Source of the DNA: Ginglymostoma cirratum
Lineage: Eukaryota
Direction of reading: 5' to 3'
Assembly (NCBI GenBank): GCA_024137785.1
Contig: JAHRHZ010000218.1
Coordinates: forward strand, 12,538,360 to 12,602,359
Length of the DNA stretch: 64,000 nt
Below are positions 12,341-58,963 of the stretch, piece after piece. The translations under genes and the position numbers were made by a program. Under the pieces are notes generated by a model. It worked only from the letters and a program-made list of their open reading frames with translations, was not told where the DNA came from and ran no database searches. The first letter of the stretch is position 1; every line of letters starts with the position of its first letter.

Positions 12341-12556
12341 AAATAAAAACTGAAAGAAATGCGAATGCTGTGAATCAGGAATTAAAAAAAAAAGAAGTTG
12401 CTGGAAAGGCTCAGCAGGTCTGGCAGCATCTGTGAAGCAAAATCAGAGGTGACGTTTTGGGTCCAATGACCCAAAGTTCTGAGGAAGGTCACCGGACCTG
12501 AAACGTCAACTCTGATTTTTCTTCACAGATGCTGCAGCAACTTCTGTTTTTGTTCC
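12341..12556. mobile_element. Fold-back Penelope-derived element with 14-bp TSD
   Basis: TTTGTTCATTTTTT at 12327-12340 and 12557-12570. Inverted arms 'gcagcatctgtgaag...tgacgtttt' and 'gaaacgtca...cttcacagatgctgc'. Confidence 0.8.
12475..12511 (+). ncRNA. Minimal type-I hammerhead ribozyme motif
   Basis: AGTT-CTGAGGA-AGGTC/ACCG/GACCT-GAAAC-GTC-AACT. Stem I AGUU:AACU, 5-bp stem II, palindromic ACGU stem III. Activity not shown. Confidence 0.6.
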
Positions 12557-13063
12557 TTTGTTCATTTTTTTGATCTATTGGTTTGTTTGGCGTCTGTTTG
12601 TGGTTTTTTTTTAAAGTTTGTAGCTTTAGCCTGAATTACTTGGCCAGGCTGTGCTGTCTTCCTGCTTACTAAAGATTAGAAATGTTTAGTGAACATCTTG
12701 TGTGACTTAATTTGCATGGCTTGTTGATACTCCGGTACATTGCTCCTGCCTTCCTTGTGAGAAATGCAGTCTGCAGTCAAAGCAAAAGCTGAAAGAAATT
12801 GTTCTGAATTATAATTCGTAATATTGCACATAACCTGCGTTGTTTTAGGCTGTCATTTAACATAAAATCGCAAAAAATGAGAAGTAACATGCTGTGCATC
12901 AATTTGAGTGTTTGAGTATATCTACGGTATCCTTGAACAAAATAATGAACCATATTAAAATTATGATTTTTAGTCAGGTTAGAAAGGCACATTTTTGTTT
13001 TGAATCGTACTCCATGCTTCAAATCTGTAATTGTGTTATCTAATATAACAAGCCTTTTTAACT

Positions 13064-13640
13064 AGTAGAAACAAATTATTGCAGATGCTGGAATCGACTG
13101 AAAACAAAAAATGCTGGAGATCACAGTGGGTCAGACAGCATCCATGGAGACAGAGTGAGCTAATATTTTGAGTCTAGATAATTCTTCATCAGAGCTGAAG
13201 TGATGTGTGGAAGGACAGCATTTATGCTGTTGTTTGGGGGTGTGGTGGTGGTGGGATAGTGGGTGTAGGGTGCTGATGGAGAAAAGATCTTAAAAGTTCA
13301 GATGAAGTGATCAGAATGTGAGAATGACAGAGCAACGGCATGTGTCCTGCCAGCCTTGAACGTACAGTAACTGGGATCAGGGAGGGAAGGAAATGATAAC
13401 AAGCTAAAAAAGGAAGAAATGGTTCACAATTTAAAGGTGTTGAACTCAATATTAAGTCCAGAAGGCTGTAAAGTGCCTAGTCTGCACACCCCTTTCCCCC
13501 CCCAAACTGTAGCACAAACGCTGTCCCCACCACACTTCACTTCAGCTCTGATGAAGAGTCATCGAGACTCGAAACGTTAGCTTGCTCTCTGTCCATGGAT
13601 GCTGTCTACCCTGCTGTGATCACCAGCATTTGTTTTCAGT
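13064..13640 (-). mobile_element. 5'-truncated Penelope-like element with inverted terminal-repeat copy, 15-bp TSD
   Basis: CAAGCCTTTTTAACT at 13049-13063 and 13641-13655. Minus strand ~13482-13425 encodes RLGTLQPSGLNIEFNTFKL*, homologous to the GIY-YIG C-terminus at 40.7 kb. ~13090-13230 is inverted relative to ~13520-13640. Confidence 0.88.
13544..13582 (+). ncRNA. Minimal type-I hammerhead ribozyme motif
   Basis: AGCT-CTGATGA-A-GAGTC/ATCGA/GACTC-GAAAC-GTT-AGCT. Stem I AGCU:AGCU, perfect 5-bp stem II, AACGUU palindrome. Confidence 0.7.
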
Positions 13641-13789
13641 CAAGCCTTTTTAACTTGTTTTTGGCAGCTGTGATTCATGTAGATGTACACAACATTATTT
13701 TGCAGTCTATCTTTTCGTTACAGGAATTCCATAAATCCTTAAAACTGTTCAAATTGTCCTAACGTCTGTCAAGGTGATTTACCTCAAAA

Positions 13790-14270
13790 TGTGTAGAAGA
13801 ACACACTTATAATGCTGTTAATATCATAAGACATCCAGGATGTTTGCAGAATAATCATAAGCAAGGTGTGACATCAAGCCAGTAAATTTGGTCAAATGAT
13901 CAAACGTTTGGTCAGAGGTAGTAGACTAAGGAATGTCTTGAGGGAGGAAAGCAAGGTGGCAGGGTAGTCCTGTGTTTGCGGCCCAGGCAACTGAAGGCAC
14001 AGCCAGTAATGATAGAGCAATTAAAATTGGGCCAGAATTAGAGGTGTGCAGATATTTCAGTGTTTTGTAGGGCTAGAGGAGATTTACAGAGATGGAGAAG
14101 GATGAGGCCATTAAGGAATTTGAAAAATCAGGATGTAAATTTCAGAATCAAGACATTGTCTTTCAGGCAAGCAAAATGCTGATAGGACAGCAAAGTTTCC
14201 TGAGAGTCATTCATAGGCAGCAAAATTGTGTGCAACCGCAAATTTACAGAAGGTAGAATATGAGAGCCAG
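13790..14270 (-). mobile_element. L2-like LINE 3' fragment
   Basis: Purine-rich + strand with 'ggcccaggcaactgaaggcacagcc', the reverse complement of the 'ttcagttgcctaggc' tail motif seen at ~51650. Confidence 0.5.
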
Positions 14271-15719
14271 GAGGAATAATCCTCTTCTAGTTGCTTTGTT
14301 ATGTCTATCCTTTCTACAGATGTTCTACCAGATCTAATATCTTAATTTCCCAATTAATTAGCTGATTTACATAGGTCTTTGATACTGTAATTTCCCTCAA
14401 CACTTTTCAATTTTCTTTCAATTTTCTTTCAATTTTAACAAATAAAATAATGTTATTTTGTATATTGTAGCATTAATAGAAAAACAATTTACCTACTTGA
14501 TCCTGTTCAGTGTATCCTATTTGCTGTCCCCCTCTGGTGTTACTTTTAAAGCAAAACCAGTCATCTGCAAGTCTCTTCCCCCTTAAAAAGACAGCATCCT
14601 GATGGTCAAAAATGAGACAAGAGTCCAAAGTGACTAGCTGTATTTGTTTGTCCCTAGGGGGAAGTGACTAACACCTGTTTTTAAAACATTCGTCCATATG
14701 GAACAAGGGACCTGATCATGAAGTTTTTGCATGACGTCACGGCTGCATTCATTCTTCTTTTGTTGAATGGGTTTTAATTTCAAGTTTTAATATCAGTGAA
14801 CAGTTTTTTTTTCTCATTCCAGCTTTCGACATAAGGGGTGCTTTAGTTGTCTTTGTGTAGGTTTTTAAATGAAGTAATGGGCACCACTAGGCATTCCTGT
14901 TTAGGGAAAGTAGAAATTTAAGGAGATTGGTCTTGTTCTGCTAGATTACACCTTTAGTCAGCTGACCACGAAGTTGATTTTGTGCTAGCTGTCAAGAAGC
15001 TTTATAATTGACTATCCACTAACCCTTCTTACAGCTGTAAGATGATGACTGGAGAGCTGGGAAGTGAAGAAGGACTTCTAAAGTGAGGAGAAAGAAACTG
15101 TTTGGAGCTCTAATTGTATAACATTTTGAATCCCAGAGTGACTCTCAGATTTGCCTATCCTCTTCAAATGATGTTCACTGAACTGTACTTCAGTTGTTGC
15201 AGATATTGGCTGATCTTTTCCTTTTTATTGTAAGACCATGTAAAAGATAATTTATTAGAGTTGTTTATATTTGAACTCTTTCTGAAAAGTGTCCTTTGTA
15301 AGGACATTTTAATAACTTGGAGGAAAGTTATCAACGAAGTTCTCACTTTCCAGGTTGTGCATAGATACTCTGTGCTACATGAGTGAACCAAGTAGAACTG
15401 AATGTTACCAGGCTTGACTTCATAGTCACAGTTGGTAAATGACAAGTAAATGCTCACCTAGCTAGCAAGATGTACATCTCATGAATGATTTTTTTTTTGT
15501 TTAAAATGTGTTATAATTGACCTCAGCATTCCTGGTTTGGAAAACAATTTAGTTGGGATTATCCTAGTGATCACCTTATAAGATAACAGTTCTTAACTAC
15601 ATGTGTTGGAGACTGGGGAGAGAAAGGAGAAGCTAAACAAATATTTAGTCTTGTGTTTGCTTTCAGTATATCTGAATGCTTTTAAAATAATTTCTAAATT
15701 TTAAGTATTTGATATTTAG

Positions 15720-16095
15720 GCAGATTCCTTTAAAATGGGCCAGGATTTTGTGAAGAACTCCTCGTCCAGTTTTGAAAGCTTGGATCACCGTGATCTTCCC
15801 ACAGGCATGTTAGATTTAAATGTCAAGAGAGAAATGATGAGGACTGCGACAGTTACTCGGTTCAGCACAGACACGGCTGCCTTAAATACCTCTACACAAG
15901 GAATTCTACTTCAAGGTACATCAAACACTGGTTGCCTAAGTCACCATGTGTCCTCAACAAATATTAGCAAGTGTTCATCCACTGTAAAACATGAACTGTT
16001 AAAGAGAGAAAAAAGGAAGGCCTCCCTAGCACGAGAATCTATACGCTTCATGAAAGGAGTTATGGATGAATGTACACACATTGGAAATTTCTCAG
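15720..16095 (+). CDS. ABHD18: ABHD18 coding exon (376 nt, phase 0-1)
   Basis: atttag|GCA GAT TCC TTT AAA ATG...TTC TCA G|gtaatt. ADSFKMGQDFVK...ESIRFMKGVMDECTHIGNFS. Both ends match ABHD18 and the middle is a divergent S/T-rich linker. Confidence 0.95.
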
Positions 16096-18174
16096 GTAAT
16101 TTAAACTTTTCAATGAAATTCAAAATATGTACAAAGTGCTGTAATCTGCCTCATTAAGGCTTTGTGTCTGTCATTTTATTGTTTAGGAAGCATTCAAGGT
16201 TCTTCTGATAGTTTGTTGGATAATTTTGCCATGTGGCTAGCTTACTTTAGTGAGGGTAGCAGTTAGGGTTTTATAGATGGTCTTTGTATCAGGAAGGAAA
16301 AGATTCTCACGTAGGTACAGTTGTTGATTCCATTATTGCTGGAAGTGTGGTTTTGAATGACTCTTTGGCCATAGCTGGATTGACTCAACAGTAATGGAAT
16401 TTTATTTTATTCTATTCTATTTTGGAATAGCCTACTAAACCCATTGTCTAAATTGATACATGGAAAATGACAACTTGGTTGAGGTAATTGGAAGGGTTAC
16501 AGCGTGCATGGAAATCCACCTTTGCATCAGTCACTGTTCCGAAGAATATTGGATAGAATTGGTAAAAGAACTTAAACAAAGCTTGCAAAGATTTGGAGAA
16601 TCTCTCATTTTGGGCTGCAAAATAGCTAATGCATCAATGTGAATTCTATGCAAGACCTTTATGACCAATGTCAGAATAATGTTAGAGACAAAATTCTGCT
16701 CCCTCAATAAAGCAGGAGAGGATAATGGACGAGATATGAATTAACTGGTGGACTTGTCCCCATCTGTATTTATGAATTGCTCAACTCAAGATTGCACTGA
16801 CAAAGCTGAGAACTTGTATATACTCTCTAGCATGGAACTGACTTTTGCAGGGAACGGCAAAATGCATTTTGTAGGAGATAATAACAATCCTTATTCTTGC
16901 TAATCAGCTCTTTTTTTATTGTTTGCAAAATCTCTTTGACTGTTGTAGTAGATAATCCTTTACTGTCAGCAATCCTTACATCAATAAAATGCACTTGTGT
17001 CCACCATCGTTGATTTAATAAAGATCTTTACTTTAGCACATTTTCTTTATTGCAATGTATGAATTTATATTTTTCACTTTCAATACTTACTGAGTCCATT
17101 TTTAAGTTAAATAATCTATTTTAATTATCATTCATGGTAAAACATCCCACAATCCAGTAACAAGAAAATTTTCTTGTGATATTTGTCTTTTGTACTTCCA
17201 ATGATAGCAGAGCCTACAATCCCATTAATGATTTGCCAACAAAAATCTGATTTTGATTTCGAACCTCCCAAATACTTTCATAAATTCAACATCATCTACT
17301 TGCCCTTTCCTCAATCTTCTCTTACAGAGAAATACCTCTGAATTTTCAATCATTTATTCATCAAAAATTATAATCTCTTATTCCCAGGGTAATTCCAGTT
17401 AATTATTGTCCTATCCTATATTGCAAAGTTTCCCAAAGGAAGTGTCAGGATTCCAGGTAGAGTCACAAGCTCAAATTTTGCAGTTGTGAGTTCTGAGGCA
17501 GTAAAGACTGTTGTAGGCTACCACTTGAGCTACAGCAGCCATGCTCCTCTCTTAGGAGCTCCCACACTTTCAAGCTCCCTCTGACCCCTGCTCCTGTGCA
17601 CTCATACATCCCTGCCCTCACTTTCATAATTCTTACTGAAGGATGATGATGATTTCAAGCCATGAAATTAAGTTACACTGGGAAAACCATTCTCATACTA
17701 CAATAGCTTGCAATACTGAAATCTGTTCTTAATGTCTTCTAAAAATTCAAATGAATTACCTTGTTTTGATATTCAGTGCTGTATCCTTATGTATAACAAT
17801 CATCATCCCATTGCTATTTATGATTTTTCTGAAACATTCCTCTTTGAAGATTGATGTGTCTGCACCTCCTAGATCTTTGTCATTTGTATTTTGAATGGTT
17901 CTACCATGAGACGCTATCACTTTGCTTCGAAAAGGTAACAATTTACCTTTCTATACGATAAGCTATATCTGTCACCTATCTGCACACCCTGCTAATCTGC
18001 TTGGCATCCTGCATCTGTCTTTTCTTTGCAATTCCCACATGTTTAGTGTTATCTGAAATCTTCAGCATTGTTGTACAGATGCATATGTAAATTTCTTAAA
18101 TGGAAAATAAAAGATGTTTCACTACAGATTCTTGTAGCATTTCACATGCTGTTTGCTTTCTGCCCCTCACCTAA

Positions 18175-21500: not shown

Positions 21501-22088
21501 ATGTGTTGTTAGAACTCTTGCACATTTTTCCATTAATTTTATTAACTTTGGTTGAGAGCTGTGAATTGGAAACTATAAGCTAAAGATGACTTTTGGACTA
21601 GCTAACAGCTTGTGTTAAAAAGAAACTAGATCAAACAAGCTATTGCTTATTTATGAGGCAATGCTTCGAAGTTAATTGCAGGTTCATTCTTGATCAAAAG
21701 ATTCTGCAGCTGTTTTGTCACCGGGAAAGAACATTATATTTAAACAGATAACAGAAGTTGGCTTTTAATGAGGTCAGCACCTGAGAATTCATTCCAGCAC
21801 GTCTGGAAAGGATCTTCTCCTCCAGCAGGTAGCAAATGTTGTATGGTAATTGGAATCTCATGGAGGAGACTATCAGCCTGTCAGAGAAGGAGTCAGCGCA
21901 TGAATTGGGTTTTCTATGAAAATAATCTGGCTGTTGAAGCTGCGGCATGAATATTTGAAAGCTCCTTGCATAACTTCTTTGCCAGCTCTCGGAAGTTCAC
22001 AGAATAAGAAACTAAGTTCGAAGTCTTGGATAACAAGCATGGGGCTGGATGAACACAGCAGGTCAAGCAGCATCATAGGAGCAGGAAA

Positions 22089-22120
22089 ACTTGACGTTTC
22101 GGGCCTGAACCCTTCATCAG
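22089..22120 (-). ncRNA. Minimal hammerhead ribozyme motif (5' stem I strand lost in the gap)
   Basis: Reverse complement reads CTGATGA-A-GGGTTCAGGCCC-GAAAC-GTC-AAGT. The + strand partner at 22530 has GAGA instead of GAAA. Confidence 0.55.
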
Positions 22121-22520
22121 NNNNNNNNNNNNNNNNNNNNNNNNNNNNNNNNNNNNNNNNNNNNNNNNNNNNNNNNNNNNNNNNNNNNNNNNNNNNNNNN
22201 NNNNNNNNNNNNNNNNNNNNNNNNNNNNNNNNNNNNNNNNNNNNNNNNNNNNNNNNNNNNNNNNNNNNNNNNNNNNNNNNNNNNNNNNNNNNNNNNNNNN
22301 NNNNNNNNNNNNNNNNNNNNNNNNNNNNNNNNNNNNNNNNNNNNNNNNNNNNNNNNNNNNNNNNNNNNNNNNNNNNNNNNNNNNNNNNNNNNNNNNNNNN
22401 NNNNNNNNNNNNNNNNNNNNNNNNNNNNNNNNNNNNNNNNNNNNNNNNNNNNNNNNNNNNNNNNNNNNNNNNNNNNNNNNNNNNNNNNNNNNNNNNNNNN
22501 NNNNNNNNNNNNNNNNNNNN
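22121..22520. other. Assembly gap (400 N)
   Basis: Run of n. Confidence 1.
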
Positions 22521-24161
22521 CCCCCATTTCTGATGAAGGGTTTAGGCCCGAGACGTCAAGTTTTCCTGCTCCTATGATGCTGCTTGACCTGCTGTGTTCA
22601 TCCAGCCCCATGCTTGTTATCTCGGATTCTCCAGCATCTGCAGTACCTTTTATCTCTGATACAAGTTCGAAGTCTTATTGCCTTTATCTCTGTGAGCTGT
22701 AAACGTGACCCTGATCAAAATCTTCAGAAAATCAACTAAGAAACTGTCACCTATACCAGTGGAACAACACATCATGAAGATCACTTAAGTAACCTGGCCA
22801 GTTTTATAATTTTCTTTTGCTTAAACCTTAACTGTGTTCATTTGTCTATTTGTCTTTTGTGTGAATGGAGTTGAAAACAAAGATTTTTTAGGTCGAAAGT
22901 ATGGACTAATTAGACTACTCTGTTTAATTTTACTCTGCTAAAGTTACTGTATTGTTGATAAATTGCTAAGTTTTTTTTAAGATGTAAAACAGTGTCTGGA
23001 ATTGATTACTTGCAGAGTCTGGGATATGTTATTCAAAAAAGTCTGGTTAGCAACCATTGGGGTCAATTTTGAAGGTTTTAATTTTACTGTATGGTGAATA
23101 CAGAGGTAGAAAGGCTGATTTGGTTTGGCTGTTTCTGAGTCATAACAGTGTTTTAAAGTGTGTTGCAAAAATTGTGAAAAAGATTGTGATGAGAGGAAAT
23201 ACAACTTGAAATAAATACCTTGTTTTATAGACCTGAAACAAAAGAGTTATTGAAGTGAGTGTCATACCCACTTATGTTTTCTGAGTAGAGAGGTGATTTG
23301 GATTTTGCTGTGGTGAACAAAACATCAAAGGTATGACACAGAAATAGGATGTTTGATAAACTCTGAGCAGCGCTAGATATTTTTTATAAATCAGAGATCA
23401 CTGATAAGCTAGGAGAATGCCATGACAGATAACAGGCACTATTTAATGTGGAAAGGTCTCAGGTTTAGGAGTAAAGTACTTTGAGGATTATACAATTAAT
23501 TTAAGGACACTGAAGAATGAGGTACAAAGGCATTCAGTTATATAACTTCTCAAACCTGCATAGGTGCATAAAATCTTAAAAAATTGAGTCAAATATTGCA
23601 GTTTAGAAATAGGGACATATAGTGGAAGGGCAAAAGCTTTGTATGCATTGACACGAAATGTTGCTTAACTCTCAAATACAACCAATGTGTCCAGCTTTTG
23701 GCACTCTTTTTCCAAAGATATTCAAGGGGAAGAGAACTCCAGATGACAGCAAATTTGGGAAAATATATTTCAGTTGTAACTATTTCTAATTGTTTTAAAA
23801 ATGTAGTCGCTATTTTCATGGAAAGAATAGGAAGAAATATTGCCTTAAGTTGGGAAGTCGCTGAAATTTCAATTAAAACTATCGTTGAACCAAGGTTGGA
23901 AAAATTTCTTTATGTAAAATAGTGCTTAGCAGGAAATCATGATGGTTGACACCGTATCTATTACATCTTTTAACAGGGAAGATTGGATATATATTTGAAG
24001 CAGAAATGGGTTTTCATGCCCGAAAAGGAACAAATGTAAATGGAAACCCACACCTCTGCTGTTCATTAAATACTCTTTCTCTTTGGTGGAGTACTTATTT
24101 AGCAAATAGTGGAAATTGTGCTACACTCCTGAAAGTTCTGATTGCCTTTTGTCTGATTTAA

Positions 24162-24332
<171 letters not shown>

Positions 24333-25463
24333 TAAAAGCAGTGAAGAATGATCAAACTGGCATTTATCTGTTGTCTTAAAGGGAAATGTTGTTGAGTATA
24401 AAGATACAAGCACAAACATTTTTTGAAGGTAATTGTATTTTTCTTCTACATTAAGCACTATAGCCAGCTGAGGAGGCAAATAAATATCTAGCCAACTATT
24501 TAGTGAAGTGAAGAGATGAGTTATCAAACAGACAGCTTCACAGCAACTTGCTGGTTTTGGGACATAGGAATTTCAACAATTGCAAGTAGACCTTTAAAGG
24601 AGTAGCAAGACCAAGAGGGAATACTCAAACTGGTACTGTGACTTTACTGTATGTCCTGAACCCCAGAGAAGCACACTGCACAAAATTAGAGATATTTTCT
24701 TGAACTTGTCTGTCTCATCTAAATTGATATGTTACATGTATCTATCTTAAGTGAAGACCAGTTCCATCCACTAAGAGCAGTAATCCTTTTAATTAAAATG
24801 TCGAAACACTTAACCTAATTAGTATTTTGATTCAACCAGAGTTCAGTACCATTTGCAGGTTATTGTCTGATACACATTCCAATACAAAAATGAATCAGGG
24901 AGATCATAGACTATGATAATTGCTTAATCTCAAATTTCAGATGGAAGAATACTTTTAAAAGTGAATGGAGATTTGTGCTGTTTTCAAACAAAGTCATTCT
25001 TCTCCCTACTTCCATCCCAAAACAGTCTGACTAGATATGAATTTTAAAATGTATGTGTTATTTAGCCAAGAGCTGGCGTAACTGAACAAGCACAGTGGTA
25101 AGGGGTGAATAAGACCTGACACGAATAAAAATATCGACAGTGAAATTTTGGATGACCTAAAGCTTCGGGAGAATAGAATGTAGGAGGCCATCATGAGTGC
25201 TTTAGGATGGTCAAGTCTAAAGATAAAAAAAGGCATGGGTGAGGGTTTCAGCAGCAGATAAGCTGAGACGATCACTGAGTCAGTGATGATATGAAGGTGG
25301 AAATGAGTCAGCCTTTGTAGTGGTTATGTGGCTGTATGGTCATATAACATCAAGGTTGCAAATAGTCTCGTTTAGCCTCAAATAATTGTCAGGGATTGAG
25401 CCAGTAACTTGGATTAGAAGACAATGGTTTATATTTTCCTAATATTTAATTGAAGGAAATTCC

Positions 25464-26373
25464 TTCAAATATCTCCAAATTTGCAGATAACACAAAGCTG
25501 GGTAGGAGGGTGAGCTGTGAGGAGGATGCAGAGATGCTTAAGTGTGATTTGGATAAGTTGAATGAGTGGCCAAATGCATGGCAGATGGCGTATACAGTGG
25601 ATGAATGTGAGGTTATCTACCTCAGGAGCAAAAACAGGAAAGTGGATTATTATCTGGCTGTAGACTCAAAGGGGAATGTGCAACAAGACTTGGGTGTGCT
25701 CATACACCAATCACTGAAGGAAAGCATGCAGGTGCAGCAAGCAGTCAAGAAGGCAAATGGTCTGTTGGCCTTCATAGTGAGAGTATTTGAATACAGAAGC
25801 AGGAATGTCTGACTGCAATTACACAGAGCCTTGGTGAGACCACACCTGGAATATTGTGTACAGTTTTGGTCTCCTTATCTGAAGAGGGATGTTCTTGCTA
25901 CAGATGGAGTGCAACAAAGGTTCGCCAGACTGATTCCTGTGATAGCAGGACTGACATATGAGGAGGTTAAATTGGTTAGGATTATGTTCGCTTGAATTCA
26001 GAAGTATAAGGGGCCTCTCAGCAACCTATATTATTCTAACAGGCCTGGACAGGGTAGATGTAGGAACAATGCCACCAGTGATAGGGAAATGCAGAACCAG
26101 AGGTCACGGTCTAAGGGTACAGGATAAACCAGTTAGGACTGAGATGAGGAGAAATTTCTTCACCCAGAGAGTGGAGAACCTCTGAAATTTGCAACTACAG
26201 AAGGCAGTCGAGGCCAACATATTGTATGATTTCAGGAAGGAGTTGAATTTTGCATTTGTGGCTCGAGGGAACAAAGGATATGAGGGAAAATTGGGAAAGG
26301 TTGTTGAGTTTGATGATCAGCCATGATCATAATCAATGGTGGAGCAGGCTAGAAGGGCCTAATGGTCTACTCC
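25464..26373 (+). mobile_element. CR1-clade LINE 3' fragment
   Basis: NISKFADNTKLG, DLGVLIHQSLK, QQAVKKANGLLAFI, LVRPHLEYCVQFWSP, RRNFFTQRV and tail 'gaagggcctaatggtctactcc'. Confidence 0.88.
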
Positions 26374-30057: not shown

Positions 30058-31059
30058 ACATAAAAATACCACTGACATTTTAATTCTGATTCACTAATTC
30101 TGGTTTGCTAAATCTGCAATGGATTTGACATCGCTGTGTAATCTTTTAATCTTAATCTGTTTGATTTTGGCTGCCTGTGTGAAAGCCATGATTCCTGGTT
30201 TGAATTTAGCACAGTTTGTATGTAAAACATGTAACTAAAAATTGATGAAGTAATTCAATGTTATATGTGAATTTTATAATTAAATTTAAATATTTACAAT
30301 TTTCATTATAACTCGCAAAACATGGGCTACTTCTTTTTTATAAAGGTAGGGATGTTGTCTTTAGAGGTGAGGAGTATTATAATTTGTTGGCTGTGATGCT
30401 AACGACCCCACCACCACCAATTTTATCTCCAAACCTTTCCATTGGTGTAACTCCAGGAAATCCTGTACCCACTCAGTGTCTGTTTGAGACATGCACACTG
30501 CAGCAGAACATCAGTAACATCCCCCCCATCCCAAGCAAAAATGATGGTACTGATGGCATTGAAATTGTAGAATTAGCATTAATATTATGCCAATTTTGGC
30601 ATAGAAATAAAGCCTGAAAAGCTTCAAGAATTGTGTTTCTGTATTGTTTTACAATTGCTTGTTTCTTCCCAAGACACATATTTGAATCATCTTCAGAGCT
30701 GAATATTCACAACAAAAGCCTGTTTCTATCTCTTCTAACTTGTATTGTCCTCCATAAGATTCAATTATTCCCTAAAGCAGAGATGTAATCAGAAATTGTT
30801 CCTAATCCTAAATGTCATTTCAGGAAATATTTGTACTTGTATAATTGCCAGTTCAGAGTTTAATATGTTTCATATTTCAAAACTGCTGATTATAAGCAGG
30901 CCGGCACCAGACATTCTGCAAAGCACTGCTAACATGAGGACATTCAGTTCTATTGAAATTACATTACTAGGGACACTGCGTTAATGGATATTGCATTGCC
31001 ATGGTAATGACAATTAAAGAGCATCAGTGTTTTTACAGAGCTTTTGACTTTTTAAGTTC

Positions 31060-38649: not shown

Positions 38650-39720
38650 ACTGGTGCTTGTCAGGTATGTAATGCTGGTTCCTTATGATATTGCACTGAC
38701 GGCCCATACCGAAGCTCACTTGCAGCAGCCTGTATATCAGTTCTTTTTGGCCTGCAAGGAATTTGGATTGACAGTAAGCATCAAGGTTGTAAGCCAGGGC
38801 TTAGTGATTTACCTTCCATCAATATTAGCAATCTCATTCTGGACACCATCCACAGCTTAACATCCCTTTGATCACCAATTATCAGAAATATGTCCCTTGA
38901 TCTCAAAATCAGAAGTAGGTTTGCCAAAGCTGCAATTTTCATGTCAAAATTGAAAATGAGAGTGTGGGACAAACTAACCAAAAATACAAAGCTCCACATA
39001 ATTGTAGCTTGTGTCTCAACACCCTTCTTTAGAGTAGCAATGCATAGACAACTTACACAGATTCTACCTCTGCTACCTAATATGAGTATTAAGCATCACC
39101 TGTTAGGACAGACTATTAAATACAATAATGTAGAGCATGTTTGCCCTCAGGAGTCAGTGGCAACTCTTGGCGTGTTCACATGCACTGCATGGGTGACAGC
39201 CACATTTCCAAAGACATTTCATAGAATCCCTACAGTGAGGAAACAGGCCCTTCGACCCAACAAGTCCACACTGAACCTCAGAGCATCCCACCCATACCTC
39301 CCTGAACACTACGGGCACTTTAGCATGGCCAATCCACCTAACCTGCACATCTTTGGACTGTGGGAGGAAACCGGAGCACTTGGAGGAAACCCGCACAGAC
39401 AAGGGGAGAATGTGCAAACTCCACACAGACAGATGCCTGAGGCTGGAATTGAACCCAGGTCCCTGGTGCTGTGAGGCAGCAGTGCTAACCACTGAGCCAC
39501 CATGCCACCCCATGGTCAATGGTGAGTGTACTATTGGCATGAGAACAGGCGACCTATGTCTACAATCCAATGATCCCAAATGATCAAGATCCCAAGGGAT
39601 CAGCATGAAGCATGTGAAGTCTTTGATGCTGACCAGAGTGCCAGGCAAAAAAGCAGTCAGGTAGCCTGGAAAAAGCAGACGGTAAAGGAAATGACCAGAT
39701 GGTAGAAATGACAGCCTGGA
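38650..39720 (+). mobile_element. RTE-clade LINE fragment interrupted by a SINE
   Basis: YDIALTAHTEAHLQQ..ACKEFGLTVSIK and SLDLKIRSRFAKAA..MSKLKMRVW..LTKNTKL. Confidence 0.7.
39220..39510 (-). mobile_element. HE1-like V-SINE
   Basis: Reverse complement aligns with 4457-4776, with an internal deletion near the tail. Confidence 0.9.
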
Positions 39721-40218
39721 GGAAGGTAGAAGAACATCATATATTTTCAAACCAACCTTTTCAGAGGTGTTATTATACAACTTGGGTGGGACTTTAACCT
39801 AGACCTCCTGTTTCAAAGGTAAAGGTACTACCACTACACCACAAGACCCATGAAAAATGCATCAGTCTACCTTACGCTAATGCTATATATCTGCACTGAA
39901 TGAAGAAATTAGACTTTAGGACTGTTGACTCCAAGCATGGTCAAAAATATATCATAAAATTGTTACTATGGTCACAGAAGCCATTTACCAAATGAGTCAG
40001 CCATTGCTTTCTGAGCATTTTGTCTTAATGCTGAACTTCTTTTTTCCCCATAGTCTTACATATTGTTTCTATTTAAATGATCATGTAGTGCCCTCTTGAA
40101 TATCTCAGTTGAACCTGGACTTCCAGGAATTGCATTCCAAACCCAGGCCACTGGCTGTATGAAAATGTCTTTTTTTTCCTCATTTCATATTTGGCTCTTT
40201 GACAAAACACTAAAACTG

Positions 40219-41190
40219 TCAGACCCCACCACCAAAGACATCTTTCCCTCCCCACCCTTATCTGCATTCCGGAGGGACCACTCCCTCCGCGACTCCCTTG
40301 TCCGCGCCACACTCCCCTCCAGCCCCACCACACCCGGCACTTTTCCTTGTAACCGCAGGAAGTGCTACACCTGCCCCCACACCTCCTCCCTCACCCCAAT
40401 CCCAGGCCCCAAGAAGACATTCCACATCAGGCAGAGGTTCACCTGCACATCTGCCAATGTGGTATACTGCATCCGCTGTACCCGTTGTGGCTTCCTCTAC
40501 ATCGGGGAAACCAAGCGGAGGCTTGGGGACCGCTTTGCAGAACACCTGCGCTCAGTTCGCAACAAACAACTGCACCTCCCAGTCGCGAACCATTTCAACT
40601 CCCCCTCCCATTCCTCAGATGACATGTCCATCCTTGGCCTCCTACAATGCCACAGTGATGCCACCCGAAGGCTGCAGGAACAGCAAATCATATTCAGCCT
40701 GGGAACCCTGCAGCCCAATGGCATCAATGTGGATTTCACAAGCTTCAAAATCTCCCCTCCCCCAACCGCATCCCAAAACCAGCCCAGCTCATCTCCACCT
40801 CCCTAACCTGTTTTCCCTCTCACCTCAAGCCACACCCCCATCTCCTATCTACTAACATCATCCCGCCCCCTTGACCTGTCCGTCCTCCCTGGACTGACCT
40901 ATCTCCTCCCTACCCCCCTACCTACACTCACCTTTACTGGCTCCATCCCCGCCTCTTCGACTTGTCTGCCTCCTCTCCACCTATCCTCTCCTCTATCCAT
41001 CCTCTATCCGCCTCCCCCTCTCTCCCTATTTATTTCAGAACCCTCTTCCCCTCCCCCATTTCTGATGAAGGGTTTAGGCCTGAAACGTCAAGTTTTCCTG
41101 CTCCTATGATGCTGCTTGACCTGCTGTGTTCATCCAGCCCCATGCTTGTTATCTCGGATTCTCCAGCATCTGCAGTACCTTTTATCTCTT
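40219..41190 (+). mobile_element. 5'-truncated Penelope-like retroelement (Neptune-type) with intact GIY-YIG endonuclease frame and terminal repeat
   Basis: Open frame to the stop at 40806: CNRRKCYTC Cys cluster, NVVYCIRCTRCGFLYIGET, RFAEH, VANHFN and EQQIIFSLGTLQPNGIN. C-rich 3' region. CACTAAAACTG repeated at 40208-40218 and 41194-41204. Confidence 0.93.
41058..41093 (+). ncRNA. Minimal hammerhead ribozyme motif in the Penelope terminal repeat
   Basis: ATTT-CTGATGA-AGGGTTTAGGCCT-GAAAC-GTC-AAGT. Stem I AUUU:AAGU. Confidence 0.6.
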
Positions 41191-41497
41191 TGTCACTAAA
41201 ACTGAGACCTCTGGTTCTTCAGTTTTAAGGTAAGGTTTGCAACTTGGGTGTGAGATCTTTCTTCCAGGCTGAAATGTATTTGGGCAAAAATTGAAGAGAT
41301 TTCAGCATATTGTACATCATGCAATTCAAAGCTATAATCTTTTAAGTCACATATTCTGTTGCCCTCTACAAATTCATGGCAAACTCCAGACTTAGTACAA
41401 GCACAATTGACTGCAAACTACTGTAAAATTTTAGATATGTCAATGTTTCAGAATCTATTGAGAGATGTGCAGTTTTTAAAGTAAGCCTCACTCAATA

Positions 41498-41720
41498 AAA
41501 ACCAAAAGAGCTGCAGATGCTGTAAATCAGGAACAAGAACAAAGTTGCTGGAAAAGTTCGGCAGATCTGGCACCATCTGTGAAGGAAAAAATAGGGTTAA
41601 TGTTTCGGGTCTGGTTCTGAGGAAGAATCACTGGACCCAAAACGTTAACTCTGTTTTTTCCTTCACAGATACTGCCAGACCTGCTGAGCTTTTCCAGCAA
41701 CTTTGTTTTTGTTCGTTGTT
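41498..41720. mobile_element. Fold-back Penelope-derived element (family of 12341-12556), ~16-bp TSD
   Basis: TAAGC(C/G)TCACTCAATA at 41482-41497 and 41721-41736. Arms 'aaagttgctggaaaag...' and '...cttttccagcaacttt'. Hammerhead core decayed (GAAA>AAAA). Confidence 0.8.
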
Positions 41721-41894
41721 TAAGCGTCACTCAATATTATGGTAGCCTCTGAAATCTCAAGATCCCTCATAGGCCTTCCAAACGACCAATGGTAAAGTGG
41801 TGGTTGTGAATTAAGCAAAGTATTAATACAGTGGGTTGTTCAAGCACTGAATCGGAGAGAAGTTTTGTTTTTAGTTGCTCATGGAATGTAGATC

Positions 41895-45065: not shown

Positions 45066-45644
45066 AGACAGGGCCTACTTCGGTATGAGGCGCAGCACTT
45101 ATTCGCACGTGGTGGCCGAGAGCTGGTTAAAGCTTAACCAGCTGATCAGACGCTTCATTTCCTTCTCCTCCCCCCCGCCCCAACCCCGTAGTCTCTTAAC
45201 AAGCAGCCTGAGGGGAGGTGAGCAACAGAACGCATGGTCGTTATTAACGTCAAGACCTGAATAACGTGTATATTTATTACCTTAGAATACATATTCTGCA
45301 ATCTCCCTCCCTCCACCTAGCTTCAAGTAATATTTAGAACAGCTGTAGCTTACACGCTGGTCCGGCTGCGTTTTATTCCCTTTTTCAGATGTTTCTTTCG
45401 TTTTCACCCCATCCATTTTTAAATCTCCTTAACTTTGCCCTTGTTCGGGTGTGGGGGAGAATCACTTATTGCCTTTATGCTTTTATTATCAATGGCGGAT
45501 TTTTAAAGAAGTGAGGGAACGCCTTTGTAATTGCCCATCTTATATTTTAATTTAACAGTAAATCGTGACACTTTTAAAGCAAATTATTAGAGAAAGGCCA
45601 AAGGAAGAGCGGTGAATTTGGACACCGGCCTAGCCGTGCCGCGC

Positions 45645-46044
45645 ATGATGACCACCGAAGTTGAATCGTCTCTGCCTCAGGCCACAGATCACGGTACTTC
45701 CCTTCAGCCATCCGATAGCAGTAACGGCGGCGGCTTTGAAGAGGAAACGACCCGTGACTGCTCCACGTTGTCCTCGGCTTCGGGTGGAGACGAGGAAGCG
45801 GACAACGACCTATTGGCGAGGTTAGAGCTACAGCCCGGAGGCCGAGACCAGTCCGAACAGCGGAGCGGCCCTCTGGAGGTGGCGACTGACCCTGAGAATA
45901 AGGAAAACGATCAAAGCCAGAGGGAGTCGGCGGAGAAATTGCAGAAAAAATTCACTGAAGCACCTCCTCCTAAAATCAACCCGTGGACCAAGAAGAAAAA
46001 CATGGTCACTAATAACAGCGTGAACGTCAACAACCAGGAGACAG
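45645..46044 (+). CDS. LARP1B: La-related protein 1 family, first coding exon (LARP1B by synteny)
   Basis: (M)MTTEVESSLP...KKFTEAPPPKINPWTKK...VNNQETG matches recalled LARP1 MATQVEPLLP...DFVEAPPPKVNPWTKN...VNGQ. In-frame TAG upstream at 45588. Donor ACAG|gtttgt. The family call is strong, but the paralogue call rests on ABHD18-LARP1B adjacency. Confidence 0.82.
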
Positions 46045-48194
46045 GTTTGTGCTCGGGATTTGTATTTTTCAAATATGATTGAATTCTCTGGAAGGAAAGC
46101 TGCAATGTGACAGTCAAGTGGCGACGAGCTTTACTTCTGTAATCAGCTGTAGTATGTTACTTATCGCAAAGTTGTGATTTTTATCGGAAAAAAGTCTAAA
46201 AGTGGTATGTTTTCATTTTAAAACGAGCATTTAACAATCACGTGATCTGATGTGCTATCTTAAGCTTGGATTGTCGGTATCTTTAGGTCTGGTGCAGTAA
46301 GTGGTCCATCATTTGATTCTTTTTAGTGCCTGATCTGCCAAAATGAGTGCTTTTTAAAAATCTGTAGACTGTCCATGTTTTCGTGCTGTGTTGCCATATT
46401 CGTAAGTGTCATTCATCCATTTTATTTACATAAAAGGGCATCAGATTAAGCAAATCTGAGAGAGGTGTGGTCTGTTTACACGCGCTCTGAAATAAAATGT
46501 AAGCAAGATTATTTATTTTAAATTAAATAACCTTTGGTAACGTCGACGTTTTTGTGTAGTTGCTGGAGGAAGGACGTAATTGGCAAACTGCATATTTATT
46601 CCTGGGAACTTGATCAAATTTGAGTTTGACGCAACTGTATACATGATAACTAGGACCTATGCTTTGCTAACTTAAATTATAAATTTAGAAAGTCAACAGT
46701 TTTGATCTTTCTACTGTTCAAGTGGTATCACCAAGTCGACGACAAAGATCAAAGCGGCTGTACCCATAATCCTACCTGTGGTTTAAAACTTGTTTTTTTT
46801 TCTGTGAATGATGTCTGTTTCCAACAGACTGTTCACTTTTTTTTAATTTAGAAAAATACGAATTTGTTAGATTTCTGTCCGACCCCTCCACCCCAATTCT
46901 TTTGCAGCTATTCCCTCTGAAACTGAAGTGGCCGAACTTGCTGATGAAAGCACATTTAGGATTACAGCGCAGTTTGAATGACGCCCATTCCCCCCCCCAT
47001 TTCTGATCAAATTTCAGTCTACCACGTGTTGTACGACTGAGCAGGCAGTGTTTCATGGGAGGAACTTGGCTTTTTATAATGTTTAGCTGGACATTCTGTT
47101 GCAATGGAATAGTGAAACACCTGTATAGGATCACAAGCTGAATTTTGCTTTTGTAGCACTTACCAAACTTTTAAAATCTGACTTCCCGCTGTCCAGCTGT
47201 TGGTGACAAGTGTCGCAACAGCAAATACTACTACCCTTTTTAAAGAATGTGCATACTGTACCATTCAACACCGTTGTTCACCAAATTCTTGTCATGTTAT
47301 TGAAGAAATAATTGAAGTTACCTGATATATTCAATGCCATGTAGAGGATTTGAATTTTAAGATTTCTTGATGCTGAGGAGTCTTTGGTGATATCTGCTCT
47401 TTTTTTGTTCTTGCAATATACCTGCAGTGTATTACCATATGTTCACATGTTATTTACAATGCAAGCTGTATTTGCTATTGGAGGCATGGTTGACCCGGTT
47501 TTCTAACACACTATTCTGCTTCCTTATGCTCTCTCGAGGTATTAACCCTTTGACATTGAGTTAAGAACCATACATTGTCCCAAGGACTGTTATTTATCTC
47601 AGAATCTTCACAAGTATAGGTTCCTCAATAGAAGGAGGCACTGCACCTGGACTCAATCCTTTTGAGCTTGAAGTTTTCTTTTGTAAATATTAATTTAGCC
47701 ATGTTTATCTGAATCCTTGGCCTTGGGAGCCCCTGGGCTGCAAAGATACGTGTCCTGTTTTTGGGTTGCAGCCAGTATACTGTGTAGCTAACCACTACGG
47801 ATAGCAAGTGGCAGGACTGTCCCTTTTTGTGTCTATATTTTGATGTTAATTCAGAATTTCTGGTTTGAAATTTGTTACTGTTAAGTACATATCTGGCCTA
47901 TTAGCTTTGAAGAAAACAATGTCACAATTTTGATATCAATTTTTTCTTCTTGATAATATTAGCTTTTACTCCGATGTGTCTAGTATTTGTCTTGTATTCA
48001 GCATCATGTGTTTTTAATATAATCTCATGGGACGGCTTTTGTTAGAAATTTGTTCAGGTGTCCAATGGTATAGTAATTCAAAACATTAAAGAGCCAAATA
48101 GATCAGGGAGGGTCCATATTCTTTTCACTTCCAACATTAGAAATAATGTCAACCAAGGTGTCTGTTGCTGTGAACAGGTTTCCCAGTTCAGATC

Positions 48195-53500: not shown

Positions 53501-54899
53501 TGAAGGATTCAGCATGCAGGTGGCACATGGAGAAAGGAGAGGTGATATGTGTAGGAGAATGGGGGAGGGAAAGAAATTACATGTGGTAGGGTCTACGAGC
53601 TTGAGGTAAGTTACTGAGAGCTGGCGAGTGAATTTTAGGGCAGGTTAAGTTCAAGGTGGCCGAAAGTTTTTAATGTAAAAGTTACAGGTTAAAAACATAA
53701 CTTGCCCACTTTCTTGTTTTCTTACAAGAGTGATTTTTTTCATTCGGTGTCTTTTTTTAAAGAAACATTTCCAGTGCTAAACAAGGGATTGCAGTTTAAA
53801 ATGGAGGGATTAGATTTAATGTGTATCAAAGCCTGGTTAGATCACACTTGGCATACTGTTTAGTTACTAATGTTTTTCCCTACTATCATTCGTGTTTTGC
53901 ACACCAAGAGGACGACTTGAAGAAACAAATTGTGATGAATCTACAAGTATTTTTAAAAATTCAACTTGTGGCCCAATTTAAAAATTTACAGTATTTCAAT
54001 TGGCCATTGCTTTCTTTTCCTGGTTAATGCCACTCTAGAGAGCTAATGTCCTATAAATAGCAATGATTCAACAGAGTGAGTAAATAAAGTGCAGTGTAAA
54101 AGCACATGAGTGCAATTTGTAAGTTAAATTATCCATGCATCAAAACTACGAGAATACTTGTTCTGTACCAAACTCACTGGAATGATGGTGACTACAGTGT
54201 AGAACATGGTATAAATTGATCAATAATGGGGGTTTGTACAAAAGATACTGCAATAATTGTGGGCGATTATAGTCATCTTGTACATCTGCCGAATCAAATT
54301 TGACCAAGTTAGCCTGAAGGATCAGTTTAGTGTATTTGGGACTGTTTCTCAGAGCGACGTTCTGTGATGAACCAGGGAACAAGCTATTTCAGATTTGGTA
54401 ATGAGACAGGATTAATAAATTACTTTATTGTAAAGGATCCTCTAGTTAAAAGCGAATGTAAAATGATAGAATTTTTCTACAGTTTTGAGTTGGAAATTTT
54501 GACCTCATTCTAGTCTCTGAAGCTTGAATAAAAGCAATTACGATGGTATTATGAAAGTTGGCTAAAGTAGAATGAAAACTTGGTTAAACTTAGCTAAGAC
54601 AATAAAGGGGTAGTGGCAGGCATTTGTTGAAGTATTTTTGAAGTGGAACATTGTCTTCGAAAGAAATAGGACAATGAAAAAGAAAAGCACCATCTGTGAC
54701 TAGCTAAGGATGCTGTCAAATTGAAAGAAAAGATGTACAATGCTACAGAAATGAATTGTCGGCCAGAAAATGAGGAATACTGTTCATTGAGATTTGGCTG
54801 TCTTTTTGCATGAATCACAGAAAAGTAGCCTGAAGGTACAAACAAATGGCTGCACAATAACAAATTGGTACCTAATTATTGAATGAATGGTACCTGATA

Positions 54900-56050
54900 T
54901 TTAGGAAGGACAGATGACTAGGGAAGGGGGTCATTAATGATGGTATTAGCACAAAGAAGGATGGCGTAGGTTCAGACTACAAGGACATAGAAATAGTTTG
55001 GCTAAAGAGGAGAAATGATGAGTGGAAAAAAGTCGCTTGTGTAATTGCTGTTCAGTCCTTCTAACTGTCGCCATGTAGGCAGGAATATAAAAGAAGAAAT
55101 AATGGGAACTTTCCACAAAGATACATCGGTGATCATTTAGAATTTTAGTCTGCTTCTTGACTAAAAATCAGCTGGGTCTAAAGGTAGCCTAGCTGAGTTC
55201 ATTGAATGTTTTTGCGAACCAACTAGAGAGCAGTCTATACTGGACCTGGTTTTGTGCAACTAAATAGGATTAACTAATTATCTCATCATGAGGTAGTCCT
55301 GAGTTGGCAATAACCAGTGTATGATTGAGTTTTACATTCTGTTTGAGGGACAGAAGAGTTTCTATAGACCCAAGGGTTAATGTATAACAAGGTTAGAAGA
55401 TTGGCCACCTGACAAAGCTGCAAGTGTATGATTGCCATTTTGTTGACTTTTATTTAAGGAGGTGGCATATAAAAATTGAGGTATCTTGGTACACTACAGG
55501 GTTTTGAAAGGACTATATCTGGAATCCTAGGAGTTCTGAAGAGAAGTCATGTCTGACTCAGAGCATTAACTTTTATTTCTCCACATACGCCATCAGATCT
55601 GCAGAGTTTCTTCAGCAATTTGTTTTTATTTCAAATTTCTAGTATCTGCAGTGTTTTGCTGTCAATCAGTGAGACCGCTTATGGAATACTGTGTACAATT
55701 TTGGTCTCCTTGTGTAATGAGAGCTCTACTTGTATTGGAAGCAGTTCAGGGAAGGTTCGTTAAGCTGACTGCTGGGCGATGAATATTGAGAGAATGTTTC
55801 CTGTCATAGAGGAATCTAGAACAAGGGAGGACAGTTAAGTTTAAAGATGAAGATATGCATCATTTAAAACTGAGATGAGCATGAGTTTCATCTGAGGGTT
55901 GTCAGCTTTTTAAATTCTCTTCCGCAGAGAGCATTGAAGGCTGTGTCACTGAACAATCCGCCATGCAAGAAGGCGGAGTTAAGGCCACAATCTGATGAGT
56001 GATGATATCGAATGGTAGAACAGGCTCAATGGCCTAATGGGTCTGTTCTT
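54900..56050 (+). mobile_element. Decayed CR1 fragments with a Penelope-derived arm (~55530-55660)
   Basis: PTREQSILDLVLCN (~55220-55260), EYCVQFWSP (~55684), and 'ttctgaaga...tctgcagtgttttgct' related to the fold-back families. Confidence 0.55.
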
Positions 56051-58591
56051 ATTTTGTGCAAATATTCTATTTTAGAATGGTTTTTATGCAGAAAAGAAAA
56101 ATTGGTCATATGCATTGAGTTTGGAGATCAGACACATGGTTTCACCATAACATAAAGTTTGTGGTAATGTTTGTAATTTTGTGTGTGTGTGTTAGCATTC
56201 TGCTAAGTATTTATGTTTAACTTTCTTTTTAAATTTGTGGGATGTGGGTGATGCTAGCAATACCATTGGTATTGCCTGTCCTTGTCTAGCTTGAAACTGT
56301 AGTGTTTGGCTATTATCTCATACTGTTTCAGCCCTTAGGGTATATTTTTGTTATTCTCAGTCTGGCATGCTTTGTGAATCTTTCTGCAGCCTTTCTGCTA
56401 CTGTTTGCTACTTGTGAGATTTCTTACAGTTCCCTGAGGAATGGGTAGGAATAAATTCGGAACAGATTCCATCTTTGTGATTTCCAGCTGACATGGGTAA
56501 AGGATTCTTGTGCAGTGGTGTTGTCCCTACCTCTGGGCCAAGAGGCCGAGGTTTAAGTCCCACTTGCTTGGAGCAGGTTGATTTAGAAAATATCTCCCTG
56601 ATATCTGTAAATGATGAGCAGTAACCTGGAAGCATTTCTTTCAACTTTGTCCCAATGAAAGCTGACTTTCTCTGTGGATCCCATGGCTTGGATGGGCTTG
56701 CCCATAAACGTTTACTTTGCAGCACAGATATAGACTTACAGCCTCCCATTGAAAGTTATTTGAATGTCAAACTTTTTTTAAGTTAACTTAAAACAATGCA
56801 GTGCTCTTTCACGTATTGTAAAATGGAGTTAGTTTTCATCAGTCAGACTAACAGATTTGTGTGGTGTAAAGCCATAATTATTTATGCTGTTTTAAGAAAA
56901 TGATAAAATGGGAATCTTAAGAAAATTTAAAATCAAGCTCCTGTGAAAATCACCTAGGGCTAGTGTTTGAAAAGGTAAGAACAGAGTGTGCTTCCTTGAC
57001 TTGTGTTCTAGTCTCTTGGAACTGTGCCTAGTCCCAAAGGCCGCAGCTGAACCTTTCCTTTCCTGAAAAAGCTGCTGTGGGATGTGGACAGACTTGAGTT
57101 TTTGTTTAGTCATCCTAGATAATAAGAGACCTGAGGCCCAGGTATTTTTGGGATGATATACTTTTGAAAAAGAAATTCACTTTACTGCCAATGGAATCTA
57201 AACTTATAGATGACACTGGATTTTAAAAGGGGTGAATTTAAAACTACGATACACTTGTCCTTTAATTTGAATTTCAGTTCATCTGTTTTAAACCTATACC
57301 AGGTCAAATTAACTGTTCTTGAATGTCCTGAATCATTTGATCATCTTGTGATATCCTGCAGAGCTTACGAATGTTTCGAGCTCCTCTAATTTGACAGCGT
57401 GTTTTTGTTTGCTGATTTGCGTGTTGTGACCGTGTTCAGTCTGTAATTACTACTTGGAGAAATTGGTGTTATTTAGTTGATTTAGAAGTCGCCGCTCCAA
57501 TGCAAAAGGGCACTTGCAGTTTCTGATTGTTACTGGTGAAATTGAGGCTGTACATTTTATACTGAGCTTCAGTGTACCAAATTCAAGTTGGTTGTAAGTG
57601 GTGGAAGCAGCAGTTATTTTTCTAGCCACTTAAGTCATTTAGATTCCCATATCATTACTGAGGCCCCTTTTGCTGCTTTTTTAAAAAAAAAAATCAAGCT
57701 TTCCAGGAGACCCTGCTGTTGCTCTTAAATAGAAAATGAAATTTGCCCCGTTAATACACAAGCACATAATAAGGTATGTCTTATTAATGTTATCATTTGC
57801 TTTTAACTTGCTTTGTCGCAATGTCTTCATGTGTTCTAATTTCAGTTTCAACAAGATACTGTGCAAGGTTAAATATTAAATATTCTAAAATATGAATAAT
57901 GTTTATATGATCTGTAATTGCAAGTACGTTTTCTGTATTAAGTAATCCACCAACTTGGTTGAAGCCTTCAAAAATATAAAAATCCAAATGCATATTGAAA
58001 AGTACTGTGAACAGATGTAAAAAGTTTGTGTTGCTTTCACCTAAAAATCCTTTACATTAATTTGACGAATTATGCAATTTAATAAAAATAGACATTCAAA
58101 CCTTCCTGTGTGGTAAAGTTTTGCTGGAAATTGTCGTCTCTTGGAAGACTGCAAATATTTTAGCTGAGAATAATGCTTTGTAAGCCAGGCCAGTAAAATA
58201 CAAATGGGGCAAGTCAATTAATACATTTTAATGCAAATAAAACTGAATTGTGTAACCACTTTAATGGATCTTGCGAGCAGTAAATGAAACAAGACTAGCA
58301 CAATGTCATAATCACATGCCCAATTTCTGGCTTCATGTACATGCAGCACCTGATGACTTGGATCTTGGGTAATGGGTAATGGCAGTGAGTTTCACTGTTT
58401 ATGACATGGTGTTTGTGGATAAATTATAATTGTCTTTTTTTTTTCCCCCTGTTTTAACGAAATTGCAAATTCTGTATACAGTGCCTTCATAGAATCCTTA
58501 CGGTGTGGAAATAGGCCCTTTGGCCCAACAAGTCCACACCGAACCTCAGAGCTTCCCACCCAGACCCATCCCCTTAAAACCCACCTAATCT

Positions 58592-58963
58592 GCCCAGCTC
58601 ATCTCCACCTCTAACCTGTTTTTCCTCTCACCTATCCCCTCCTCCCACCTCAAGCCCCACCCCCATCTCATAACATCATCCCGCCCCCTTGACCTGTCCA
58701 TCCTCCCTGGACTGACCTATCTCCTCCCTAACCCCCTACCTACACTCACCTTTACTGGTTCCATTCCCGCCTCTTTGACTTGTCTGCCTCCTCTCCCCCT
58801 CTCTATTTCAGAACCCTCTTCCCCTCCCCCATTTCTGATGAAGGGTCTAGGCCCGAAACGTCAAGTTTTCTTGCTCCTGTGATGCTGCTTGGCCTGCTGT
58901 GTTCATCCAGCCCCACGCGTGTTATCTCGGATTCTCCAGCATCTGCAGTACCCTTTTATCTCT
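58592..58963 (+). mobile_element. Penelope-like 3' terminal fragment (family of 40219-41190)
   Basis: Colinear with ~40782-41189. CTAATCT duplicated at 58585-58591 and 58962-58968. Confidence 0.9.
58831..58866 (+). ncRNA. Minimal type-I hammerhead ribozyme motif, all core positions intact
   Basis: ATTT-CTGATGA-A-GGGT/CTAG/GCCC-GAAAC-GTC-AAGT. Stem I AUUU:AAGU, ACGU palindrome, GUC cleavage triplet. Confidence 0.7.

Follow-up and report, generated by a model that had tools for sequence, protein, structure and literature searches.

The stretch of DNA analyzed here, a window of 64,000 nucleotides (nt) from Ginglymostoma cirratum (assembly GCA_024137785.1, contig JAHRHZ010000218.1, positions 12,538,360 to 12,602,359 of the forward strand), contains real minimal hammerhead motifs. 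Very probably, these are type I hammerheads from the pseudo-long terminal repeat (pLTR) ends of several families of Penelope-like elements (PLEs), present now as 5′-truncated and mostly decayed stubs, and the active parent likely cuts its RNA only as a dimer or with the help of an element protein. An earlier note on this DNA had proposed dispersed hammerheads of Penelope origin whose stems covary between families.

Scanning the whole window with the core pattern CTGANGA...GAAAC recovers the five cores at 12479, 13548, 22120 (minus strand), 41062, and 58835 just where the earlier note placed them, and one extra, unrelated match at 30696. A full descriptor, which requires at least 3 pairs in stem I, at least 3 pairs in stem II, the GAAA, and the UH, identifies four loci with both stems and the NUH cleavage site: 12479, 13548, 41062, and 58835. 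When the same descriptor is applied to 300 block-wise dinucleotide shuffles, the mean number of matches is 0.03 and the maximum is 1, with zero matches in 291 of them. The core at 22120 is intact, and its 5′ stem I arm is unreadable in the window. A relaxed pattern used alongside reports 11 loci, and among these are all six decayed copies that had been proposed (11476, 11653, 13192 on the minus strand, 22530, 41617, and 61267). The covariance-model route suggested at the time did not work: an Rfam scan of the window reports no hammerhead family even at E ≤ 10, only hairpin look-alikes, below the gathering score, on a palindromic stub at 41.5-41.7 kb. Rfam models expect a helix III, and in view of this negative result a Hammerhead_1 scan would miss these motifs.

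We assign the copies to families A (22120, 22530, 41062, and 58835, with 61267 in an older subfamily, A2), B (12479 and 41617), C (13192 and 13548), D (11476), and E (11653). Stems I and II are AUUU:AAGU and GGGU:GCCC in family A, AGUU:AACU and GGGUC:GACCC in B, AGCU:AGCU and GAGUC:GACUC in C, and UCAC:GUGA and GGAGC:GCUCC in D. Stem III is reduced to a palindrome, as had been claimed, which is ACGU in A, B, and C and AGCU in D.

Two motifs are intact, that of family C at 13544-13582 (+) and that of family A at 58831-58866 (+), the latter within a fragment of 3′ untranslated region (UTR) and pLTR that starts near 58592; their predicted cuts, after 13578 and 58862, had been correctly placed. 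The family B motif at 12475-12511 (+; predicted cut after 12507) has an intact core and a stem II that is missing one G, and forms the right arm of a head-to-head stub (12385-12546). The family A motif at 22089-22120 (−), the one with the unreadable stem I arm, is the left arm of a head-to-head pair at 22029-22621, and the one at 41058-41093 (+; predicted cut after 41089) sits in a 3′ pLTR and carries C11.1>T. Among the decayed motifs, that of family D at 11472-11508 (+) has C11.1>T and an unpaired stem I, with its inverted partner, also of family D, at 11351-11432; the AAGCTT reported at 11499-11504 is indeed there. Family E at 11649-11688 (+) has G12>A and CpG changes in stem III, the minus-strand family C motif at 13158-13196 is the left arm of a head-to-head insertion (13097-13640), and the family A motif at 22526-22561 (+) has A14>G (GAGA). 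The family B motif at 41613-41650 (+) has G12>A and is the right arm of a head-to-head stub (41523-41722), and the A2 motif at 61267-61297 (+), truncated at C3 and with G12>A, lies inside another (61217-61369).

In total, six insertions in the window are head-to-head pairs, an arrangement typical of PLEs, for which inverted 5′ copies are described (PMC8557442). In a genomic sample of 1.2 Mb, evenly spaced and with 0.91 Mb readable, there are 25 pairs of neighbors no more than 1 kb apart, of which 17 have the head-to-head arrangement and 4 lie on the same strand. We found no tandem array holding the motif in the window. The 3′ ends of the copies lie about 90-127 nt past the core. As a separate observation, a B/C-type tail (11259-11349) within 11259-11590 directly adjoins the head-to-head family D stub, which suggests that one Penelope stub inserted into or next to another.

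These motifs are extremely abundant. In the genome (4.36 Gb), the pattern CTGANGAAG-N9-17-CGAAACGT has 105,085 matches versus 26 for a reversed control, and the 58835 form of family A is found in 13,276 exact 34-mer copies. The fetched loci also include, at L083:4070-4118 (−), a distinct minimal hammerhead whose stem II is longer; it is of AUGCCACC type, resembles the motif of PAc (Poseidon of Anolis), and probably belongs to a Poseidon-type family.

How much does the covariation tell us? The earlier note held that the flanks differ by family yet still pair. That is the case for the three stem I pairings it gave, those of families A, B, and C, but not for the copy at 11476, whose stem I does not pair and departs from the UCAC:GUGA of its family. 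Two of its stem II examples, GAGUC:GACUC and GGGU:GCCC, are sound. The third, AGGUC:GACCU at 12479, results from decay and does not represent a family stem: the exact 12479 core has 8 matches in the genome and the form with the extra A and GGGUC:GACCY has 6,561, which identifies it as a private form with a one-G deletion and a CpG change. The extra A before stem II had been attributed to several copies, which is an understatement, because it occurs in 106 of the 109 descriptor matches collected from all fetched loci, random and targeted pooled (107 have some extra base). In those matches, the first stem II pair (10.1-11.1) is G-C in 94 and G-T in 13. Across seven hand-picked and related rows, a descriptive comparison and not a significance test, both sides change in 8 of 10 pairs; none of 500 shuffles reaches that number, and slid controls collapse. 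Covariation between families is visible, then, but selection for the fold is weaker than had been implied, because one stem II example is an artefact and most older family A copies have a stem I of 2-3 base pairs (bp). In family A, the 3′ arm of stem I reads AACT, AGCT, or AGCC in older subfamilies and AAGC and AAGT in younger ones, with pairing going from 2 to 4 bp, which is possibly a stepwise compensation.

Decay falls mostly on CpGs, and here the mismatch counts bear out what had been proposed. CpG-type transitions account for 78 of the 104 mismatches in the CGAAACGT box in family B (63 of 76 anchored copies) and for 58 of 66 in A2 (58 of 74 copies). Copies that keep every one of the 11 core positions number 18 of 63 in B, 31 of 58 in A2, and 18 of 23 in young A.

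The Penelope origin is seen in the protein. At 40219-40803 (+), the 3′ end of a family A open reading frame (ORF) encodes a Cx4CxxC linker and a GIY-YIG endonuclease (Pfam GIY-YIG, E-value 9.5e-06). It belongs to a 5′-truncated family A copy at 40215-41189, and its GIY-YIG frame (40081-40806) stops about 260 nt upstream of the 41062 motif. The product of 40219-40803 is identical at 195 of 195 residues to a long copy with reverse transcriptase (RT) and endonuclease (EN), and all 150 scored genomic matches to the GIY-YIG piece of the window are identical at the protein level; family A is therefore very young. In two long family A copies, RVT_1 and GIY-YIG fall within one ORF, where the RT carries YIDD and is followed by the linker (Cx4CxxC at residue 629 in the frame of locus L081) and the C-terminal GIY-YIG. 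A CX2-5CxxC linker before the endonuclease is a mark of the Neptune and Nematis clades (PMC8557442), and by this motif alone the long family A copies would be assigned to the Neptune type. As for families B and C, a diverged Penelope protein on the same strand, with 30-68% identity to the family A protein, ends about 220-360 nt upstream of the motif; we count 7 such loci among the 17 long ones of B and 12 among the 30 of C. Among 16 loci with long ORFs, several of them interrupted by Ns, we found no pLTR-ORF-pLTR copy, since in none of them does a 5′ pLTR in direct orientation adjoin the ORF.

Another source of evidence is where the copies begin. We anchor each copy downstream of the ribozyme and walk 5′, giving positions relative to C3. 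From 118 anchored family A copies, 19 are censored (they run into N or the stretch ends) and 99 are not. Of these 99, 33 have their 5′ end at −7 to −1, with 18 at −3, and the hazard of ending is 0.079 per nt in this boundary versus 0.005 upstream. Apparent starts at +32/+33 were discarded; there the alignment breaks at a subfamily indel. In family B, about 35 of 48 copies, read by eye, lose the family sequence within about 11 nt, and in family D all 24 loci, chosen on the core only, lose it within about 7 nt. The boundary of stem I likely marks the 5′ end of the element RNA. RNA reads have strand-switch joints at 41057-41062. Two RNA runs over 40200-41260 give 51,723 and 32 reads with approximately equal orientations and no pile-up of molecule ends. 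This is no evidence in either direction, since fragmented poly(A) reads that are pooled across a whole family can reveal neither starts nor cuts.

We searched for promoter boxes with consensus sequences for the TATA box and the initiator (Inr). The 41062 copy has a predicted promoter element, a TATA-like box at 41027-41033 (+) with one mismatch to TATAWAW, 31 nt upstream of the first base of stem I. It starts at −35, is the sole such site in 256 nt, and has a chance of 0.0065 in shuffles; the 58835 copy has no one-mismatch site. Among the 14 long B copies, 6 have a TATA-like site starting at −35 to −33. In family C, such a site starts at −35 or −34 in 19 of the 23 loci, a set that had been chosen for similarity across this very region. 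Putative TATA boxes and Inr are described for the pLTRs of Adineta (PMC3846280), and an internal promoter for the D. virilis Penelope (PMC2377424). In the openly available literature that we covered, we found no paper tying the 5′ ends of copies or a start site to stem I.

Some copies begin instead at +28, the first base 3′ of the predicted cut. We tallied by hand the first 100 listed of 825 family A copies without the GAAAC box: among the copies listed, 8 start at or before +25, 3 at +26, 6 at +27, 25 at +28, 12 at +29, 6 at +30, 10 at +31, 8 at +32, and 22 at +33, which is a catch-all. Scaled by the filter pass rate of about 0.22 and by 108,859 anchored copies, about 1% of the copies begin at the cut; in the random family A sample, 0 of 99 start at +28. 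For 12 of the 25 listed +28 starts there is an A immediately before, and A-run microhomology is a rival explanation for them. Together, the stem I boundary and the 1% of cut-site starts suggest that mostly uncut RNA is copied, with stem I as its 5′ end.

We propose that transcription driven by the parent pLTR would begin close to the first base of stem I. The RT would initiate internally, some 90-127 nt past the core, copy mostly uncut RNA, and run off its 5′ end, leaving stubs of about 130 nt, often with an inverted partner. There is precedent in PAc, where uncut RNA is used and the RT initiates internally (PMC11167929). The ribozyme would cleave poorly alone and need a dimer or protein help, as established for its relatives (PMC4209133, PMC6765202, PMC11167929). 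Inserted stubs decay neutrally, CpGs first, and the copies in the window, as dispersed monomers, are likely inert passengers. We can go one step further, tentatively, to a version that we are slightly inclined to doubt: RNA polymerase II would start at the first base of stem I, with the TATA-like box about 30 nt upstream and an Inr-like motif; the ribozyme would be a capped leader of about 32 nt; the hundreds of thousands of 130-nt stubs would be run-off complementary DNAs of the uncut leader; and the 1% of cut-site starts would be a genomic record of cleavage in vivo.

Several observations weigh against this general picture of Penelope ribozymes decaying as stubs. The Penelope origin claimed in the earlier note holds for families A, B, and C, which have ORF ends of their own 220-290 nt upstream, but is not shown for D or E; in D, 0 of 26 loci have a same-strand protein end upstream. 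Stem I is often weak: just 4 of 27 copies of the family A lineage with family sequence upstream have 4 bp, 6 have the 3′ arm AAGC and 3 pairs, and 12 have AGCC (7), AGCT (3), or AACT (2) and 2 contiguous pairs, and these weak-stem subfamilies nonetheless amplified strongly. The 5′ ends do not fall on a single base; measured by comparison with one young copy as reference, they range from −8 to +5. The non-CpG core seemed better conserved than the flank before base matching (p=0.005 and 0.0008), an effect that is gone after base matching and the removal of subfamily-diagnostic columns (3 of 20 in B and 2 of 11 in A2), when conservation is not significantly better than in the base-matched flank (B p=0.20, A2 p=0.10), a result that speaks for the picture. 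The most stable fold computed for families A and C joins the 5′ core to the strand that holds the cut site. And the fold energies of five short window stretches are no better than those of shuffles (z from −1.41 to 0.07), an uninformative test, since the energy model ignores the non-standard pairs of the core. In the predicted monomer folds of 58836-58863 and 13548-13580, UGAUG of the 5′ core joins the cut-site strand, and it is possible that this sequestered form is an off state.

Could the stem I boundary have nothing to do with an RNA 5′ end? It could be produced by T-rich microhomology, or by the endonuclease cutting at an ATT site in the pLTR of its own element. Among the 18 copies whose 5′ end is at −3, 15 have a T directly before it, the PAc endonuclease favors ATT (PMC11167929), and head-to-head junctions with short templated fill-in are common. 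However, the boundary is the same in families B (GTT) and D (TCAC), both without ATTT, a longer T-rich run near −35 to −27 in family A has few ends, and A, B, and C have the TATA-like box at −35 to −33. We regard this explanation as a serious one that is nevertheless rather doubtful. Somewhat unlikely, in our judgment, is that the motif serves mainly as a conserved signal in DNA or RNA (a promoter, a protein-binding element, or an element related to the RT), with cleavage dispensable or lost in some families. The success of subfamilies with a weak stem I, the competing fold, and the majority of copies that begin upstream of the cut all fit a signal; so do the insertion of PAc in vitro, unimpaired by hammerhead mutants (PMC11167929), and the spread of Naiads without hammerheads (PMC8557442). 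It is harder for a signal to account for a catalytic core that is invariant over five families and subfamilies while the stem pairs swap, for the youngest family A form regaining a 4-bp stem I, or for the small excess of starts at the cut site.

That the stubs are an independent family, like a short interspersed element (SINE) or a retrozyme, made from cleaved or circular RNA, we find very improbable. Short copies are very numerous and non-LTR retrozymes do originate from pLTRs (10.64898/2026.07.22.740005), but the window has no motif-bearing tandem array, copies cross the cut site with variable 5′ ends and rarely begin at the cut, and same-strand neighbors are few (4 of 25). We give almost no credence to the idea that individual copies in the introns of an ABHD18-family gene have been co-opted as ribozymes for the host pre-mRNA. 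The intact-core copies at 12479 and 13548 are indeed in sense orientation and have ABHD18-like exons on both sides, but they are monomers without helix III, one of them already has the stem II deletion, and decay across the family is consistent with neutrality.

PAc bears on the in vivo role of Penelope hammerheads: it inserts without cleavage in vitro, and its RNA-seq, as reported, showed no cut ends (PMC11167929). Here, over 100,000 copies of a very young family offer a large read-out of template RNA starts. Should transcription begin at the stem I boundary, with a small share of copies starting at the cut, the in vivo role of the ribozyme would become directly testable.

Regarding the rest of the window, ABHD18-family exons (Pfam PF09752, weak at 15.9-16.1 kb and with an E-value of 1.9e-18 at 24.2 kb) are found at 15960-16115 and 24153-24338 (+), with further exons preceding the window; with these exons flanking them, the motif copies at 11-22 kb are intronic. 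At 45591-46082 (+), a weak PDB match to LARP1 (E-value 0.07) suggests what is probably an early coding exon of a LARP1-type gene, and the GC-rich stretch upstream, at 43.9-45.1 kb, is likely a CpG-island promoter. ABHD18 beside LARP1B is, we presume, also the human gene order. An abundant SINE-like repeat, which we take to resemble the shark HE1 SINE, has copies at 4453-4776, 9973-10124, 39218-39515, 58486-58591, and 58977-59159, and one SINE-like copy is interrupted where the family A fragment lies, at 58.6-58.96 kb. The repeats and host genes appear to be of the kind seen in cartilaginous fish. Fragments of non-LTR retrotransposon RT are found at 6064-6498 (RVT_1 E-value 1.1e-05) and at 25450-25812, the second one presumably CR1-like.

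Four known systems come closest. For the minimal hammerheads of metazoan PLEs, Cervera and de la Peña 2014 (PMC4209133) describe the extra nucleotide, G10.1-C11.1, the palindromic 15.2-16.2, covariation, and opposite-strand pairs. Ours are alike in being type I with no helix III loop and a palindromic 15.2-16.2, in the extra nucleotide between 9 and 10.1, the G10.1-C11.1 pair, and the short helix I, and in having several consensus families per genome, mostly as dispersed singles, with opposite-strand pairs 100-700 bp apart. Helix II has 4-5 bp here, as opposed to 7-8 bp in Schistosoma, and copy number is at least 105,085 core matches, as opposed to about 4,000 in coelacanth and 9,000 in Xenopus, counted with different descriptors (PMC4209133). 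With the Neptune and Nematis EN+ PLEs (PMC8557442), family A shares an RT with YIDD, the Cx4CxxC linker, and the C-terminal GIY-YIG, together with 5′ truncation, inverted 5′ copies, and a pLTR hammerhead. With PAc (Frangieh et al. 2024, PMC11167929), it shares the pLTR hammerhead, copies that cross the cut site, and 3′ ends about 90-127 nt past the core that fit internal RT initiation; unlike family A, PAc falls outside the Neptune linker clade as described there, and its ribozyme was shown to cut with protein help, as the motifs here may do. The non-LTR retrozymes of animals, in a study that sampled one chondrichthyan, also have type I hammerheads derived from pLTRs, but they form tandem units with one hammerhead each, while the copies here are dispersed or head-to-head (10.64898/2026.07.22.740005). 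The supplements of PMC4209133 and 10.64898/2026.07.22.740005 may list these very families. All the structural features in the earlier note are already known for Penelope minimal hammerheads, and what is new is a very high-copy vertebrate example.

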